From positions 128,001 through 192,000 of the forward strand of contig CAVYXA010000005.1 in assembly GCA_963772365.1 (NCBI GenBank): a DNA stretch of 64,000 nucleotides. The letters are read 5' to 3'. The position numbers and the translations under genes were made by a program. Shown here in pieces: positions 39,977 to 51,510 of this stretch. How positions within the stretch are numbered: the first letter of the stretch is position 1; each line of letters begins with the position of its first letter. The notes under the pieces are model-generated. The model made no database searches, was not told the origin of the DNA, and worked only from the letters and a program-made list of their open reading frames with translations. Source of the DNA: an uncultured Verrucomicrobiae bacterium. Lineage in GTDB: Bacteria > Verrucomicrobiota > Verrucomicrobiia > Chthoniobacterales > UBA10450.

Positions 39977-40004
39977 AATGACGAATGTCGAATAACGAAT
40001 GCCG
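39977..40004. repeat. Four tandem 7-mers (AATGNCG-like)
   Basis: AATGACG AATGTCG AATAACG AATGCCG. Confidence 0.7.
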
Positions 40005-43923: not shown

Positions 43924-44910
43924 TCAACCGCCCAGCAATTCCGCCACCAGCGATTTCTCTTCCCTCAGCTCGGCGATCGATTTGTCGATCTTGTTCCGGC
44001 TGAAATCGTTGAGCGGGAGTTTCTGGACGATCTCCCATTTGCCGCCCTCAACTCGAACCGGAAATGATGAGATCAGGTCTTTTTCCACGTTGTAACTGCC
44101 ATCCGAGCAAACCGCGACGCTGTGCCAATTGTTTGATTCCGTGTCGTTAGTCAAAAAACGAACCGTATCGACAATGGCATTCGCGGCCGAGGCGGCTGAG
44201 GAAAGGCCACGCGCTTTGATGATCGCGGCGCCACGTTGTTGCACTGTGGCGATGAAGTCATTTTTCAGCCAGTTCTCATCGCCAATCACTTCGTTGGCCG
44301 GGCGATTGTCGATCTTCGCGTTGTAAAAATCGGGATACTGCGTTGAAGAATGGTTGCCCCAGATTGTCATGTTCGTGACGCGGTTGATCTCGACGCCAGC
44401 TTTATGTGCAAGTTGGGCCCGCGCGCGGTTCTCATCCAGCCGGGTCATCGCGAACCACCGGTCGCGCGGAATTTCCTTCGCGTTGTTCATCGCGATCAGA
44501 CAATTGGTATTGCACGGATTCCCGATCACCAGCACGCGGACATTGGCAGCGGCGTTTTTCTCAATCGCTTCCCCTTGGCCGATAAAAATTTTCCCGTTAA
44601 TGCCGAGCAGATCTTTGCGTTCCATTCCGGCCTTGCGCGGAACGCTTCCGACCAGCAACGCCCAGTTTACATCGCGGAATCCTTCATCGAGATCGGCCGT
44701 GGGCACGATCGATTGCACCAGTGGAAACGCACAATCGCGCAATTCCATCACCACGCCTTCCAGCGCGTTCAGAACAGCCGGAATCTCGATCAGATGCAGG
44801 GCCACCGGCTGATCCCTGCCGAACATTTCGCCGGAGGCGATTCGAAACAAAAGCGCGTATCCAATCTGCCCGGCCGCGCCGGTGACAGCGACTTTAATCG
44901 GTGATTTCAT
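43924..44910 (-). CDS. mdh: Malate dehydrogenase
   Basis: [44 protein letters not shown]. Confidence 0.96.
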
Positions 44911-44917
44911 GATTCAA

Positions 44918-45032
44918 TTAGCCACAGATGAACACCAGCCTTCGTCTGAAACTACGGCTTGGCAAGTGGATGAAACACGGATTTCCAGAACAGAATTCTC
45001 ATCCGTGAATATCCGTGTTAATCCGTGGCTAA
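44918..45032. repeat. Gene-less CACGGAT inverted-repeat element (MITE-like)
   Basis: TTAGCCACAGATGAACAC[32 nt]GGATGAAACACGGAT...ATCCGTGAATATCCGTGTTAATCCGTGGCTAA. Confidence 0.85.
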
Positions 45033-46720
45033 GTTCTTTCGCTCTTCTCCAGCAATTCCCGAATCAATTTCATTCGCTTTCGTTCTTTCGGACTGCGCGC
45101 GATCTGCGCGATCGTACGGTTCATTCGACGGCTCCAATTTCCACTCGCCGCCGTTCCAGGAATGTTGAATCGATATTTGCGCGCCAGCAGATCTGTAATC
45201 ATGACCACCGCGATCCACGATTCGCTCTGGAAAAGCGCCTTCATGATCGCCGAATAAAAATCGTTCTCGTAGCTGATCGGTTCTTCCCGTGCCGAAACCC
45301 CGGCGAATTCGGCAATCTTGTTCAACGCGTCTCGCGCCTGGTCCGAAGTCGATGTGGTCCGCTCGACCGCTTCTTCCCACAACTTTCGCAACGGTTTGTG
45401 ATCGTGCGTGGCATACGTCGCAACGGAAAGCCGGTCGTACTCCGAACCGGGAGTAACACGTCCGCCATAGACTTCCCATTGCGGGATCTTGAAACCGGCG
45501 ATGCCGAGAGAGCGCAAACTTGGTCGCACATAATCGGGCACCGTCCCCAGATCTTCGCCGATCACCCGCTCATTGCCGGATTCCTCAAGAACGACGCGCA
45601 AGTATTTCTCTCCCTCCTGCCGGTTTGCTTCGCACTCCCGCGGATTCGAATCGTCTCGCGGAACAAAATGGGGCGCGCGGCCGCCGGTGCGTTCGAGCAT
45701 GTCATTCCACTCCAGATCTAAAAATTCCTTGTTCCGCGATGGTCGCCACGGGAACGCATAGATCCGATAAAATCCAAGCACATGATCGATCCGGAAAAGA
45801 TGAAAGATACGCCGGACGCCACGCACGCGCAGACGCCACCAATCGAAGTTGCGCGACCGCATCACATCCCAGCGATAGAGTGGGATCCCCCAGTTTTGTC
45901 CCCATTTTTGGGTAAACTCGTCGTCCTTGAAATATTGTTCCGGTGGCGCGCCTCCCGACCAGTCGAGCGCAAATTCGTCAGGCCGGGCAAAAACATCCGC
46001 GCTGTAATAACTGACCCCGAATGGGATGTCGCCCATCAAGGCCACTCCGCGTTCGTCGGCAAAATTTTTGATGTCGCGCCATTGCTCGTGCGCGATCCAT
46101 TGCACGTATCGAAACAAATTCTGTCGTTGTTCGAATCTTCGTCGTCGATCTTTCGGCAAACCGCGAAACCAGTCGTGTGCGGCAGCCGTGGTAGAAGTGT
46201 TCCATTGGTCCCAATTTTCTCGTTCGCCGTTCTCCTCCATCAGGGTGCGAAATAACGCATAGCCATCGAGCCAGTCGGTCTCCTCGCGGCAAAAGTCGCG
46301 GAACGCCGATTGTCGATCCTCGCCCGCTCCATCGCAAAACCGAGTAAAGGCTTTCTCCAGCAAGCGCCGCTTCAATTTCTTGACCGGCGCATATTTTACC
46401 GGGCAGCGCCGCAGTTTCGTTAGATCGACATCAGCGATAGCCGCCGAGAAATCCTCCGAAGTCAATTCCTTCGGGCTGCCCGGCGCGAGGTGAATCGTCG
46501 TCGGCTCGATCGCCATTGCACTGATCGCGTTGTAAGGACTATCATCGCCGCCGATTTCGTTAATCGGCAACAGTTGGATCAACTTGAATCCGCTCTCCGA
46601 GACCCAATCAATCAGTTGCCGCAACGTTTCCACGTCGCCAATCCCGAGATCGTCTTCCCGCCGCAGAGCGAATAATGGCGCCAGGACTCCCGCGATTTTT
46701 TTCTCCGGAGAAAGATTCAT
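45029..46720 (-). CDS. malQ: 4-alpha-glucanotransferase (GH77)
   Basis: QLLPINE, SPY, MGDIP, GAPP, GQNWGIP, RIDHVLG, GEDLG, ATHD. Confidence 0.93.
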   Translation of the reverse strand: MNLSPEKKIAGVLAPLFALRREDDLGIGDVETLRQLIDWVSESGFKLIQLLPINEIGGDDSPYNAISAMAIEPTTIHLAPGSPKELTSEDFSAAIADVDLTKLRRCPVKYAPVKKLKRRLLEKAFTRFCDGAGEDRQSAFRDFCREETDWLDGYALFRTLMEENGERENWDQWNTSTTAAAHDWFRGLPKDRRRRFEQRQNLFRYVQWIAHEQWRDIKNFADERGVALMGDIPFGVSYYSADVFARPDEFALDWSGGAPPEQYFKDDEFTQKWGQNWGIPLYRWDVMRSRNFDWWRLRVRGVRRIFHLFRIDHVLGFYRIYAFPWRPSRNKEFLDLEWNDMLERTGGRAPHFVPRDDSNPRECEANRQEGEKYLRVVLEESGNERVIGEDLGTVPDYVRPSLRSLGIAGFKIPQWEVYGGRVTPGSEYDRLSVATYATHDHKPLRKLWEEAVERTTSTSDQARDALNKIAEFAGVSAREEPISYENDFYSAIMKALFQSESWIAVVMITDLLARKYRFNIPGTAASGNWSRRMNRTIAQIARSPKERKRMKLIRELLEKSERT

Positions 46721-46723
46721 TCC

Positions 46724-47190
46724 TTAGCCACGGATGAACACGGACGAAACACGGATTAAAAGATCAGGCGTTTGTACTCAACTTTGAGTCGGCCGAAGTT
46801 GATTAGCAGACCAACCTTGAGCCCGGTTGCTTTTAGCTCGTTCAGCAATTGCGCCTCGTCCCGCTTGTCGTACTGCGGATTTACTTTGATTTCGACAGCA
46901 ACGGAATCGACGACTATCAAGTCGGCATCATAATCTCCAACGACGACGCCTTTGTATTGGACTTGAATGCGTTTTTCAATTTCTGCAGCGACACCGCGAT
47001 TGATCAATTCCACTTGCAATGCTCGCTGGTAGACTCGTTCCAGAAATCCATATCCAAGTTGCTGGTGAACTTCGAATGCAGCTCCGATGATCGCTTCGGT
47101 AGTAGCCCGGTGTAGCAGTTTGTCCGGGTGTTCGTCCTGGATTTCTAACATTCCGTTATCCGTGTTTCATCCGTGTTCATCCGTGGCAAA
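46724..47190. mobile_element. GxxExxY gene bounded by 33-bp inverted repeats (putative mobile unit)
   Basis: Left arm 46724-46756; right arm 47158-47190; 31 of 33 positions match. Confidence 0.6.
46756..47151 (-). CDS. GxxExxY protein (PD-(D/E)XK nuclease family)
   Basis: 131 aa; GFLERVY, ADLIV...VEIK, AQLLN, GLLINFG. Confidence 0.92.
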   Translation of the reverse strand: MLEIQDEHPDKLLHRATTEAIIGAAFEVHQQLGYGFLERVYQRALQVELINRGVAAEIEKRIQVQYKGVVVGDYDADLIVVDSVAVEIKVNPQYDKRDEAQLLNELKATGLKVGLLINFGRLKVEYKRLIF

Positions 47191-47192
47191 AA

Positions 47193-49193
47193 TCAAGATC
47201 GGCTTACCTGCCAATCTTCGACGAGATTGTTTGGAATTTCTTTGAGGAACCGGGATGGCCTTTGGAAGACGTCGCCATAGCCGGCATTCAATCGCATGTG
47301 CGGATACGTGAGATACAGCTCGTCTTTCGCGCGGGTGATTGCCACATAGAACAACCGCCGCTCTTCTTCGAGCGCTTCACGAGTATCGAGCGAACGGCTG
47401 CTGGGAAACATTCCGTCGGTGAGCCAAATGACGAATACCGAATGGAATTCCAATCCTTTGGCCTGATGGACCGTGGAAAGATTCACCGCTTCTTTCTCCG
47501 CGGTCTGGTTCGGCGCAGCCTCAGCATCGACATTGCTGATGAGCGCGAGCTGGGCCAGAAATTCGTTTACATTCTTGAACTGACGCGAGAAAGCCGCCAG
47601 CTGGTTCAAATCTTCCTTGCGCAGCTCGTAATTGGTGAAGTTCACTTTCGCATAGTCATCGTAGATCGCTTCGACAACAGAGGTGATCATTTCCGAGGGA
47701 GGAATCGGCTGACCGCCCGGCGCGATCTCATTCAGGGTGTGCGCCAGTTGCGTCCAGGATTTCTTCGATTTCGCCGGCACATTCATCGCCAGAAATTCCT
47801 GTCCGAAGTTCTGGCCAGAATCGCGTATTCCGCTCTCCCATGTATTCCATAAATTCTCGGCGGTTCGATTTCCGATTCCGGGGAGCAACTTGACCATTCG
47901 CTTAAACGCAACTTCATCCCGAGGATTCGCCACGAATCGAATGAACGCCGTTACATCCTTGATGTGGGCCTGCTCGAAAAATCGGATCCCACTTGTGATC
48001 TGATAGGGAATGCCACGGCGGGAAAGCTCGAGCTGCAACTCGAGCGCGTGATAATGCGCCCGATATAACACCGCGATCTCGTTAAGATCGACATTCTCAT
48101 CGCGCAACTCGAGAATCCGTTGAGCCACGAATTGCGCCTGCTCACTCCCGTCGTTTAAGGCAACGACCGCAGGCTTGACCTCACTTGATTCCCGCGTCGG
48201 TGAAAGATTTTTCCGGAACTGCTCGACATTCGCAGCAATCGCCGCGTTTGCGACCTCCAGCACCTCTGGCACGCTCCGGTAATTCATCTCAATCTTGAAC
48301 ACCTGTGCGCCCGGATAGCGTTTCGGAAATTCGAGAATGTTCTTAAAGTTCGCGCCTCGCCAGGAATAGATCGACTGCGCGTCGTCGCCGACAACCATTA
48401 CGTTGCGATGTTCCGCTGCGAGCGTGTCGATGAAGTCGGCCTGGATCTTGTTCGTGTCCTGATATTCATCAACGAGGATGAATTGAAATTGCCGCCGATA
48501 AATCTCCGTGATCCGCTCGTGCTGTTTTAACATCGACAATGTCTTCTCCAGCAGGTCGTCGAAATCGACCGAGTTAGTGGCCTTTTTCTTCTTCTCGTAA
48601 CGCGCCTGGATATCTTTGATCTTGTCCAGTAGCGGGAGGAAATACGGAAATTTCTCGGCGAGCAATTCCTCGATTGGCGTTTCCGTGTTTACGACGAAGC
48701 TGAAAATTTCGGCCAGCACATCGCCTTTCGGGAACCGGATTTCCCTGGGATCAATTCCAGCGCTGGCCACTACAGTGTTGATCAAATCTTTTTGATCTTC
48801 ACGGTCCATGATGGTGAAGCCGCTGGAATAACCGAGCGCGCTGCCATGACGTCGCAGCATGCGATTCCCGATCGAGTGGAACGTCCCGCCCCAGATTCCA
48901 CTCGCATCAAAGGGCAGCAGATTCGCCACGCGATCGAGCATTTGGCGCGCGGCCTTGTTCGTAAAAGTGAGCAGCAAAATATTTCGCGGATCGATTCCGT
49001 TCTCGAGGAGATACGCCACGCGATATGTCAGCGTCCGTGTTTTGCCCGATCCCGCGCCAGCGATGACGAGCAGTGGCCCTGGCGGCGCGGTCACGGCCGC
49101 GTGCTGTTGCTCATTCAATTCCGCCGCATAATCGATATGGATCCCGCCGTCGCGGGATGCTGGTGCGTGTTGGAGCGTGTATTGGCGAGACAT
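47193..49193 (-). CDS. UvrD/PcrA-family ATP-dependent DNA helicase
   Basis: AGAGSGKT, LTFTNKAA, VDEYQD, VGDDAQSIY, TVHQAKGLE, EERRLFYVAITRA. Confidence 0.95.
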   Translation of the reverse strand: MSRQYTLQHAPASRDGGIHIDYAAELNEQQHAAVTAPPGPLLVIAGAGSGKTRTLTYRVAYLLENGIDPRNILLLTFTNKAARQMLDRVANLLPFDASGIWGGTFHSIGNRMLRRHGSALGYSSGFTIMDREDQKDLINTVVASAGIDPREIRFPKGDVLAEIFSFVVNTETPIEELLAEKFPYFLPLLDKIKDIQARYEKKKKATNSVDFDDLLEKTLSMLKQHERITEIYRRQFQFILVDEYQDTNKIQADFIDTLAAEHRNVMVVGDDAQSIYSWRGANFKNILEFPKRYPGAQVFKIEMNYRSVPEVLEVANAAIAANVEQFRKNLSPTRESSEVKPAVVALNDGSEQAQFVAQRILELRDENVDLNEIAVLYRAHYHALELQLELSRRGIPYQITSGIRFFEQAHIKDVTAFIRFVANPRDEVAFKRMVKLLPGIGNRTAENLWNTWESGIRDSGQNFGQEFLAMNVPAKSKKSWTQLAHTLNEIAPGGQPIPPSEMITSVVEAIYDDYAKVNFTNYELRKEDLNQLAAFSRQFKNVNEFLAQLALISNVDAEAAPNQTAEKEAVNLSTVHQAKGLEFHSVFVIWLTDGMFPSSRSLDTREALEEERRLFYVAITRAKDELYLTYPHMRLNAGYGDVFQRPSRFLKEIPNNLVEDWQVSRS

Positions 49194-49236
49194 TTGGCGG
49201 TTCTGCAACGAACCGCAGCAACCGGTTCGACGCAAC

Positions 49237-51510
49237 TCAACGGACCGCGACGCGAGACGAAGCCGCCCGTCCGTGATCGTCGAGAGCGGTGATCTCATAA
49301 TCGCCAGTGCCCGGCTTCCATAAACACACGTCACCGCACGCCGCCGTTCCGATCAAAGTTTTGCCCGCAAACCAGTAAATTTCGCGAACATCGCCGTCCG
49401 TTTTCGCTTTTAACGGAATGCTTTTCGAGGATGTGAGTACAATTCGTTGTCCCTCGGCCGGCGAAATGATTCGCGGAGGAGTTCCATCGCGAGCCGCGAG
49501 TTCAACTGACGAGCCGGGCAGAAATGGCGGCGGCAATTTCCGAGGCAATCCGGCGCTGGCAAAGAGCGTCATAAATTCGCTGGACCAGAATTCGTAGATT
49601 TCATGGCGCAAAACGTGTCTGCCGTCATCAACCGGCAGGCGCAATCCGGTGGCTACATCGACGAGCACTTCGCGATGAACATCGCAGGTTTTAATCGGCG
49701 AAACTCCGGGAATGAACCAGCCCTCGACGCGCTGCGTGCAGAACGGCCCGGGCAAATCGCCCGAGACAGCGCAAAATTCCACGCGTTTCAGATTTGCACC
49801 GGCCAGCGGCAAATGCGGTTCGTTAGGCTGTGGCCAGGTCGCGCGCAGACTATCGATGATCCGGAACAGCAGCGGAGCGGCTGCGCTTCGCCCGATGAAG
49901 TTTGGATTGGCGCGGCCATCGAAGTTCCCGATCCAAACAGCAAGCACATAATGATCGAAGATCGCCACCGACCAGGCATCGCGAAAACCGTGCGATGTTC
50001 CAGTTTTCCAAAAGACCGGCGCCATTCGTGTCGAATCCGCGCAGGCCATTTCCGGTCTGGGCTGATCCAGCATTTCAATGGTAAGAAAAACAGCTTCGGG
50101 TGAAATGAGGCGCGACGCGTTCGCGGCAATCGGATCGCTGCGAACGCGGCGGAGTGGACGAAGTTCTCCTTCATTCGCCAAAGCGGCGTAGAGTCGAACC
50201 AGGTTCTCCATCGAAATTTCTGCCCCGCCAAGCGGAAGCGTTAGGCCATAGGTCGATTCCGAACCTGCCAACGGAACACCGGCGCGGCGGAGAAATTCGT
50301 AGAAGGTCGGGTGCGACAGTTTCGAGGCCAGTTCGATTGCGGGGAGATTTCGGCTGCGGGCGAGCGCGTCGGTTGCGCGAATCGGGCCGAGAAACTCGCG
50401 ATCGAAATTCTCCGGATTATAATCGCCGAAACTTCGCGGCGCATCGGCCAGGATCGACAACGGATGAATCAAACCTTGATCGATCGCGAGCGCGTAAACA
50501 AACGGCTTTAGTGCCGAGCCCGGCGAGCGCGGACTGCGTGTTCCGTCGACCTGTCCCTGAATTGCCGCGTTGAAAAAATCGGCGGAACCGATTTGCGCGA
50601 GCACATCCATCGTGCGGGAGTCGATCAGCAATGCCGCAGCGTTCTGCATTCCGCGATTTCGATTCATCCGAATGTAACCGGCGACACGGCGCTCGATCAG
50701 TTGCTGTCGATCCAAATCGAGCGTGGTTACGATCGCTCGCTCGTTTCTGCGTGTTATCAGAACTTGCTGAACAAAATGTGGCGCTAAAAATTCAGGCTCT
50801 GTCTCTGCTCGCGGCCGGAACAAAATTGCCGCATCGCTGTTATGTCGGGTGCGCCGGGAGAGAACGGCATTCAGCGCGTGATTCTCGCGATCGACCAGCA
50901 GCGCGCGTCGCGAAGGACTTTGCGGAATCATGCTCAAAGCGATCGATTCAGGCCGGCTTAAACGCGCGGCAGGCTTCACGAAGTAGAATTCGCTCGCCGC
51001 GGCTGCGCCTTCGATGTTTCGCCCATACGGCGCGAGATTCAGATACGCTTCGAGAATTTCGTCTTTCGAGTAATGACGTTCGATTTCCAGAGCCAGCAGG
51101 ATTTGATTTAACTTTCCAGCGAATGTTCGCGTGTGCAGATGAAAACGGAGACGCGCCAGTTGCATCGTGATTGTCGATGCTCCCATGCGCGGAGCGCCAC
51201 GCAACAAACCAACTGTGGAGCGAAATAAGGCGACCGGATTCACGCCCGGATGACGCCAAAAATATTTATCTTCGTATCGCAGCGTCGCACCGATCAGTTC
51301 CGGGGAGATGTCACGCAGCGGTGTAAGGATTCGAAATTTCTGGTCGGAAGTGAGCGTGACTCTGAGCAATTTGCCATTTCGATCGCGAACAGATTGCGAG
51401 AACGAAACACCGTCGAGCAACTGTGGCTTTGGCAATGCGAGCCAGAATGCAACAGCTAATACGGCGAGAAATAAGAGCGACCGCAGCGTCTTCTTCAATC
51501 GCATGTTCAT
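49237..51510 (-). CDS. pbpC: Penicillin-binding protein 1C
   Basis: EDKYF, GASTITMQLAR, GSALKPF, KTGTS; follows the A2M gene. Confidence 0.93.
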   Translation of the reverse strand: MNMRLKKTLRSLLFLAVLAVAFWLALPKPQLLDGVSFSQSVRDRNGKLLRVTLTSDQKFRILTPLRDISPELIGATLRYEDKYFWRHPGVNPVALFRSTVGLLRGAPRMGASTITMQLARLRFHLHTRTFAGKLNQILLALEIERHYSKDEILEAYLNLAPYGRNIEGAAAASEFYFVKPAARLSRPESIALSMIPQSPSRRALLVDRENHALNAVLSRRTRHNSDAAILFRPRAETEPEFLAPHFVQQVLITRRNERAIVTTLDLDRQQLIERRVAGYIRMNRNRGMQNAAALLIDSRTMDVLAQIGSADFFNAAIQGQVDGTRSPRSPGSALKPFVYALAIDQGLIHPLSILADAPRSFGDYNPENFDREFLGPIRATDALARSRNLPAIELASKLSHPTFYEFLRRAGVPLAGSESTYGLTLPLGGAEISMENLVRLYAALANEGELRPLRRVRSDPIAANASRLISPEAVFLTIEMLDQPRPEMACADSTRMAPVFWKTGTSHGFRDAWSVAIFDHYVLAVWIGNFDGRANPNFIGRSAAAPLLFRIIDSLRATWPQPNEPHLPLAGANLKRVEFCAVSGDLPGPFCTQRVEGWFIPGVSPIKTCDVHREVLVDVATGLRLPVDDGRHVLRHEIYEFWSSEFMTLFASAGLPRKLPPPFLPGSSVELAARDGTPPRIISPAEGQRIVLTSSKSIPLKAKTDGDVREIYWFAGKTLIGTAACGDVCLWKPGTGDYEITALDDHGRAASSRVAVR

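Follow-up and report, generated by a model that had tools for sequence, protein, structure and literature searches.

In an uncultured soil bacterium of the Verrucomicrobiae, the genes for 4-alpha-glucanotransferase (malQ, 45029..46720, minus strand; PF02446, E 6.3e-113) and malate/lactate dehydrogenase (mdh, 43924..44910, minus strand; Ldh_1_N and Ldh_1_C) are separated by a hairpin that holds no gene, which raises the question of what this hairpin is and how it came to lie there. Positions refer to the window, the whole 64,000-nucleotide stretch that was analysed (C5:128001-192000 of the 3.35-Mb, 6-contig assembly G000). On the other side of malQ, 1.7 kb from the hairpin, similar arms enclose a gene. 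This cassette (46724..47190, minus strand) consists of a 3' arm (46724-46756), a gene (46756-47151) whose 131-aa product matches PF13366 (E 2.5e-35) and TIGR04256, "GxxExxY protein" (E 8.9e-37), and a 5' arm (47158-47190). The arms are 33 nt each and 94% complementary, and the cassette leaves 3 nt to the malQ start and 2 nt to the stop codon of a uvrD-type helicase gene that lies upstream on the same strand (47193..49334, minus strand). malQ is thus bracketed by a full element (46724-47190) and an empty one (44918-45032), as a preliminary description of this DNA had claimed.

The hairpin itself (TTAGCCAC...GTGGCTAA, 44918..45032, 115 nt, assigned to neither strand) is 89% complementary over its outer 18 nt. 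The outer part of its left arm (44918..44935) reads TTA, GC, unit 1 (CACAGAT), a GAA spacer and the CAC of unit 2, and 44918-44935 is 94% identical to 46724-46741 of the gene-bearing cassette. A nested 32-nt insert (44936..44967), itself predicted to form a small hairpin, splits unit 2 between CAC and GGAT, and the arm resumes at 44968..44982 with the remaining GGAT, a GAAA spacer and unit 3 (CACGGAT). These 15 nt (44968-44982) are 100% complementary to the cassette's 47158-47172 and have the form that we call alpha, which in gene-bearing copies is that of the arm after the stop codon. An 18-nt loop without an ORF (44983..45000) leads to the uninterrupted right arm (45001..45032), ATCCGTG-AAT-ATCCGTG-TTA-ATCCGTGGC-TAA, with its three ATCCGTG units. 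Written in one orientation, the units are CACAGAT, the split CAC-GGAT and CACGGAT on the left and three times CACGGAT on the right, and both arms consist of three CACRGAT units once the insert is removed. The distance of 18 nt between the arms given in the preliminary description is correct for the inner ends. Its count of three units per arm is correct for the right arm; it had overlooked the insert, and because the insert splits unit 2, the left arm counts as three units only if the insert is taken out. The malQ stop codon indeed lies inside the outer end of the right arm, where the TAG (45029-45031) overlaps the arm and has the arm's last C as its first base, and the mdh start codon is 7 nt from the left arm. 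The hairpin is a gene-less member of the heptamer-repeat family that frames the GxxExxY gene across malQ, in agreement with the original observation of the same arms without a gene.

How common are such elements? The arm pattern GCCACRGATNNNCACRGAT, with at most one mismatch, has 24 matches in the 3.35-Mb genome, and the same pattern read backwards as a control has 0 in the same genome, so these matches are not due to chance. By unit chaining and inspection of the flanks, elements of this type, which we call A, comprise 11 gene-less hairpins, the malQ-mdh copy included, versus a single gene-bearing cassette. Both arms are clear in the gene-less copies at C1:315452, C1:784158, C3:374464, C3:407732, C4:127650, C4:153862, C5:172918 (the malQ-mdh copy), C5:219318 and C5:230331, and one arm is decayed in those at C1:1773890 and C6:32655; a few solo A-type arms are additionally present. 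The preliminary description had named the absence of further empty copies, together with conservation as an ordinary regulatory hairpin, as the observation that would speak against it; since 10 other gene-less A-type hairpins exist in this genome, that objection does not arise.

The A type is one of several. Of the six PF13366 genes in the genome, one carries a frameshift; inverted arms with about three tandem units flank every one of them, and each gene has arms of its own heptamer type: CACGGAT (A), CACAGAG/CACGGAG (B), CGCGAAT (C), CGCAGAT (D), ACAGAAT (E) and CAGGAAAG (F). Gene-less hairpins were found for five of these six types (A, B, C, D and F). The same arrangement holds in five other genera, where such arms flank 16/16 full-length PF13366 genes, and the arm types recur across genera as lineages, along with their proteins. 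We use "GxxExxY-associated heptamer-arm hairpins" as a working class for elements that have inverted arms of about three heptamers, the same heptamer around a PF13366 gene in the genome, and dispersed gene-less copies; the malQ-mdh hairpin has all three features. To our knowledge, no definition of such a class has been published, and the literature searched on the GxxExxY/PF13366 and PF05635 families yielded no description of a link between GxxExxY genes and repeats.

Several further observations concern the cassettes and their surroundings. A frameshift interrupts the F-type gene (C1:1337160-1337502), yet both arms around it are intact and the genome also has F-type hairpins without a gene. 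Several GxxExxY ORFs of relatives (L033, L034, L026, L029) extend into the 3' arm, whose units are then translated as C-terminal tails such as ..NPVNPVNPV, and extra tandem copies of one arm adjoin gene-bearing cassettes at L002 (G017), L004 (G011) and L092 (G001). The genome of G000 has about 110 inverted-repeat loci with arms of at least 20 nt, and further palindromic families are abundant in it, for example TGTAGCGGCGGTCTRTGACCGTCGC and TGTCATTCTGAGCGAAGCGAAGAATCTC (e.g. C1:402447-402519 and C1:1187375-1187477).

Five intact orthologous hairpins from the malQ-mdh junction were compared pairwise. At unit positions other than position 4 they differ at 6.7% (24/360), at position 4, an A/G switch, at 57% (34/60), and in the spacers at 40% (49/123, in the best register); their loops, 18-42 nt long, cannot be aligned, and the surrounding 1.4 kb is 72-74% identical among the orthologous junctions. 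The two arms of one element show a similar picture when compared with each other: in gene-less hairpins (22 of 28 parsed) the units are 91.8% identical, spacer 1 36% and spacer 2 21%, and in gene-bearing A-type cassettes of other species (29 of 32 parsed, from 35 loci fetched) the corresponding values are 95.6%, 48% and 75%. Since the units are far better kept than the spacers, the loop and the flanking genes, these comparisons indicate that the heptamer sequence itself is constrained, beyond pairing alone. Simple decay of CpG could account for the position-4 switch, which would weigh against the reading of the heptamers as protein recognition sites that is favoured below. Most gene-less copies are asymmetric, with an inner NAAA spacer (usually GAAA) in one arm and a 3-nt spacer, often TTT, in the other, and in 23/29 cassettes the GAAA arm follows the stop codon. 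In the malQ-mdh hairpin the GAAA arm adjoins mdh, which is the same orientation as in the neighbouring cassette.

The preliminary description had also proposed that presence or absence be compared between strains. The sequence that precedes the mdh start was compared across 22 members of the family, counting G000. Five of the 22 (G000, G006, G011, G017 and G021) carry an A-type hairpin with both arms intact, and G023 has a two-armed hairpin with mixed CGCAGAT/CACAGAT units. Remains are found in 15/22, ranging from a left arm of at least two units down to a 9-11-nt TTAGCCACA stub, those in G004 and G005 being doubtful; G014 has a decayed left arm, and in G024 no element can be recognised. In eight of the 15 genomes with remains, the spacer is now occupied by another repeat family, namely an ATGACGA-unit hairpin in G001, G009 and G022 and a TGTCAT...GAGCG repeat in G004, G005, G015, G016 and G018. 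The 32-nt insert lies at the same position in the G017 ortholog, and because of this identical placement the hairpin together with its insert predates the split of the G000 and G017 genera; the state in G001, a stub beside another hairpin type, is derived. Taken together, the alignments indicate that the malQ-mdh hairpin is old, not recent, and has been inherited at this junction across several genera. The copy is probably no longer mobile and survives as a tolerated resident that gives malQ its stop codon, just upstream of the mdh start.

The insert has a history beyond this junction. It also occurs at another locus of G021 (L147, G021:C1:1146232-1146323), at the same unit position and beside an uninterrupted twin hairpin, and at least six sequences related to its core (CCAGCCTTCG..CTACGGC.TGGCAAG) are found at other G000 sites, next to TGTCAT..GAGCGAAGCGAA repeats. 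Relatives were sought by BLAST and nhmmer; a strict insert pattern matched only G000 and G017 among 31 genomes and was too narrow, as it missed the diverged G021 copy. Possibly the insert is itself a very small mobile element.

How do hairpins of this kind arise and disappear? The junction of the C5:219318 hairpin is only 5-16 nt long in G011, G043 and G022, which lack the hairpin; the same junction holds an ATGACGA-type hairpin in G001, and in G017 it is occupied by a roughly 440-nt cassette whose arms are of the GTAAGAT type. At the junction of C3:407732, the same-genus G001 has a stop codon, 4 nt and a start codon, again without a hairpin. Such pairs of filled and empty sites indicate, from the aligned sequences, that the elements were inserted. 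Loss of the gene in place is shown at the neighbouring uvrD-malQ junction, because the arms are intact around a 152-nt gene remnant in G021 and around about 85 nt of the gene's 3' end in G045 (L158). Thus, operon junctions acquire elements of this kind, elements at such junctions lose the gene between their arms, and hairpins of other types take their place. The malQ-mdh copy itself may be a scar or a transposed miniature, each route being supported at other sites. Its loop has no significant likeness to the A-type cargo (score 16 against a shuffle mean of 13.7, p 0.19), and 0/24 loops of gene-less hairpins resemble that cargo at p<0.05. The loops of different gene-less copies are unrelated to each other, so no recent burst is visible in this genome.

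Replacement can be extensive. Between G000 and G001, which belong to one genus, A arms number 24 versus 2 and matches to the ATGACGA pattern 15 versus 158, and the ATGACGA arms of G001 flank weak PF05635-like genes. Two A-type junctions of G000 have ATGACGA-unit hairpins in G001 (L008, L076), a wholesale change of type within a genus. ATGACGA-type matches are also present in the window at 39977 and 47427 (C5:167977 and C5:175427), one of them inside the uvrD-type gene. No consistent target-site duplication or direct repeat was seen across copies; the outer ends of the hairpins are usually TTA...TAA, the flanks are often TTA/TAA or CTAA, and several upstream genes, malQ among them, end with a TAG formed at the arm end. 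The idea that a full and an empty element together moved malQ as a composite transposon was ruled out, since the uvrD-cassette-malQ-mdh synteny is kept throughout the family, genomes without the hairpin included.

The protein encoded in the cassettes offers a candidate for the factor that acts on the arms. Its AlphaFold model has a mean pLDDT of 90.3, and the top structural matches are all PD-(D/E)XK proteins: Cas4 SSO0001 (Z 8.3, rmsd 4.2, 100 residues aligned), AF1548 (Z 8.1), BpuSI (Z 8.1) and Hjc (Z 7.0), none of which stands clear of the others. G33, G35, E38, Y41, E48, D77, E87, K89, F119 and R128 are invariant in 23 sequences. The modelled fold and the E...D...ExK residues (E38, D77, E87 and K89) place the protein in the PD-(D/E)XK superfamily, and it is a putative active nuclease. 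No PDB relative was found by sequence at E up to 1, PADLOC contains no family that matches the protein, and the cassette gene matches no transposase family; its only Pfam match is PF13366, and NCBIfam assigns it to TIGR04256. The family is very large, with 7929 proteins at E <=1e-10 among 7999 candidates examined, and a 2012 survey of PD-(D/E)XK proteins (PMC3424549) gives the function of PF13366 as unknown.

Our judgement leans slightly towards a REPIN/RAYT-like system in which, as the sequence patterns suggest, each GxxExxY protein acts on DNA and recognises its cognate heptamers. The protein would read CACRGAT heptamers, three per arm and about one helical turn apart; it would act on these elements as DNA, cutting or copying them much as RAYT proteins are believed to treat REPINs, and could spread or maintain the gene-less copies in trans. 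According to Bertels and Rainey (2011, PMC3116915), the known system combines REP doublets that form hairpins with a REP-associated tyrosine transposase. The heptamer system resembles it in having one enzyme gene per repeat type with inverted copies of its own repeat around it, in gene-less hairpin doublets that populate extragenic space and are over-represented there, in several types per genome, each with its own repeat, and in an A-type gene whose locus is the same in related species (30-33 of 35). In contrast to REPIN-RAYT, the enzyme is a 131-aa protein with a PD-(D/E)XK fold (PF13366), where a RAYT is a Y1 HUH transposase, each arm strings together three heptamers whose spacers vary freely instead of forming a single imperfect palindrome, and the loops are unrelated between copies. 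The nuclease likely recognises the repeats, and the system would then be an undescribed counterpart of the REPIN elements found in other bacteria.

The number of arms gives a mixed picture of such an action in trans. An A-type ortholog (at least 66% identity) is present in 7 of 31 genomes, and the median number of A-type arms is 19 with the gene (n=7) versus 5 without it (n=24; Mann-Whitney p 0.024, kinship ignored). These counts include G003, which has the A-type gene, as well as G008 and G014, and the conclusions are unchanged without the three. However, G021 has 60 A-type arms and only the 152-nt gene remnant, G045 has 41 A-type arms and no PF13366 match in a 98% complete genome, and in G011 the cassette has CACGGAT units, whereas most of its gene-less copies have CACAGAT.

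Other mobile elements show parts of this layout. Like MITEs, the gene-less hairpins are short and dispersed, have terminal inverted repeats and have a longer, gene-bearing relative; in contrast to MITEs, no consistent target-site duplication was seen across copies, the malQ-mdh copy is ancient and syntenic, and the partner encodes a protein of PD-(D/E)XK fold and no known transposase. The ends of the transposons Mu, Tn7 and Ac/Ds have several short direct repeats each, inverted between the two ends, which constitute multiple protein binding sites. The heptamer arms are like these ends in layout only, since those elements are much larger and have known transposases.

The same cassette architecture also carries an unrelated gene. 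Another six cassettes, each about 400 nt long and with arms that repeat every 6-7 nt, contain PF05635, the family of 23S rRNA intervening-sequence proteins (C1:846048-846524, C1:1307302-1307795, C1:1469386-1469778, C5:68499-69001, C5:226793-227259 and C5:229333-229792). The arms may therefore serve something other than a nuclease. The PF05635 cassettes of G000 are mostly wedged between co-directional genes.

These cassettes are part of what speaks for a different, rather unlikely reading, drawn by analogy with rRNA intervening sequences (IVS), in which the element acts as RNA. In a transcript spanning uvrD, malQ and mdh, the arms would pair into a stem, RNase III or the nuclease-fold protein encoded by the element itself would cut this stem, and the insert would be released or silenced, with the upstream stop and the downstream start codon kept side by side; the gene-less hairpin would then be an ORF-less form, comparable to ORF-less 23S rRNA intervening sequences. 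In the IVS of Coxiella burnetii, which lies in helix 45 of the 23S rRNA and, according to PMC4990558, is excised by RNase III, a small ORF or none is likewise found within inverted repeats, oriented in the sense of the host transcript. Vertical inheritance and decay of the ORF are further points in common, as are the six PF05635 cassettes, whose family is that of ORF-bearing 23S rRNA intervening sequences. In contrast, the malQ-mdh hairpin lies between protein-coding genes and not in a 23S rRNA helix, the A-type cargo is PF13366, and the arms are tandem heptamers. The placement of the gene-bearing cassettes fits a life at the RNA level and counts against action on DNA: all six GxxExxY cassettes of this genome are co-oriented with each flanking ORF found (10/10 sides), with gaps of -2 to 20 nt and no space for a promoter. 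In species-representative genomes of Verrucomicrobia, Chthoniobacterales or Candidatus Udaeobacter, moreover, the start of malQ lies downstream on the same strand in 33 of 35 A-type cassettes (31 by script, with the shorter loci L098 and L110 added), the end of uvrD lies upstream in 31, and both lie within position limits in 30.

Folding predictions for the malQ-mdh hairpin are also compatible with an RNA element. Predicted folding energies are -45.9 kcal/mol (z -4.5) for the transcript strand and -38.9 kcal/mol (z -4.2) for the opposite strand. The long RNA hairpin between malQ and mdh foreseen in the preliminary description is thus matched by a strong predicted fold, although one with a three-way structure instead of a single hairpin: an outer stem, reaching from the malQ TAG to 7 nt before the mdh ATG, encloses an inner hairpin and the insert's own hairpin. 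However, the spacers of gene-less copies are not complementary, so pairing alone fails to explain the conservation. Nor do G-U mismatches clearly outnumber A-C mismatches on the transcribed strand in G000 (5 versus 3, counted by hand). The GAAA arm lies downstream with respect to transcription in 11 cases and upstream in 5 (5 versus 3 in relatives, 6 versus 2 in G000), a difference that is not significant. Among the 14 hairpins of relatives for which both flanks could be assigned, 6 lie between co-directional, 7 between divergent and 1 between convergent genes, two of the divergent cases, both in G012, being near-identical; flank directions come from tblastn of flank translations for relatives and from ORFs determined by hand for G000. 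The lack of a clear strand rule and the gene-less copies between divergent genes favour recognition of the heptamers on DNA.

It is quite improbable, in our view, that the hairpin is an inert scar co-opted by the host, that is, a former malQ-mdh cassette that lost its gene and whose arms were kept for the malQ stop codon and for a structure coupling or tuning mdh translation or mRNA stability. Such a history would fit the gene decay within intact arms at uvrD-malQ in G021 and G045, the TAG that the arm supplies to malQ, the remains in 15 of the 22 genomes, among which the left arm beside the mdh start is best kept, and the hairpins that persist in G045 without any GxxExxY gene. Against it speak the loop, which holds no significant gene remnant, and G007 and G024, which have no hairpin at the malQ-mdh junction; and conservation of these heptamers extends to many unrelated junctions and to intergenic regions between divergent genes, which a role specific to malQ-mdh does not explain. 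Recognition on DNA, the IVS-like reading and a co-opted scar are not mutually exclusive. Finally, it is very improbable that the spacer between malQ and mdh simply contains a regulatory hairpin or intrinsic terminator of the ordinary kind, unconnected to mobile DNA: such an element would be conserved at the same position in several genera, as is observed, but the same arms at 11 other genome sites and around a gene contradict it, a scan of 44600-47400 for terminators, which have a G+C-rich stem followed by a T run, found no site at the hairpin, and no Rfam family matches at E up to 1.

More broadly, we put forward as a tentative possibility that the large GxxExxY family consists of nucleases that read heptamers, with every lineage adapted to a repeat of its own, and that seed, maintain and overwrite hairpins at operon junctions; such a system would represent a second, independently evolved REPIN-like replicator, with a PD-(D/E)XK enzyme, or, if the enzyme acts on the RNA stem, a counterpart in bacteria of protein-cut intervening sequences. 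The tie between each gene, its own heptamer array and the gene-less hairpins provides a concrete, testable substrate for the very large PF13366/TIGR04256 family. In genome annotation, the same tie accounts for many conserved hairpins between genes of abundant soil Verrucomicrobia, hairpins that supply stop codons and reshape operon junctions. If true, REPIN-type replicators within genomes would be served by two classes of enzyme instead of one.
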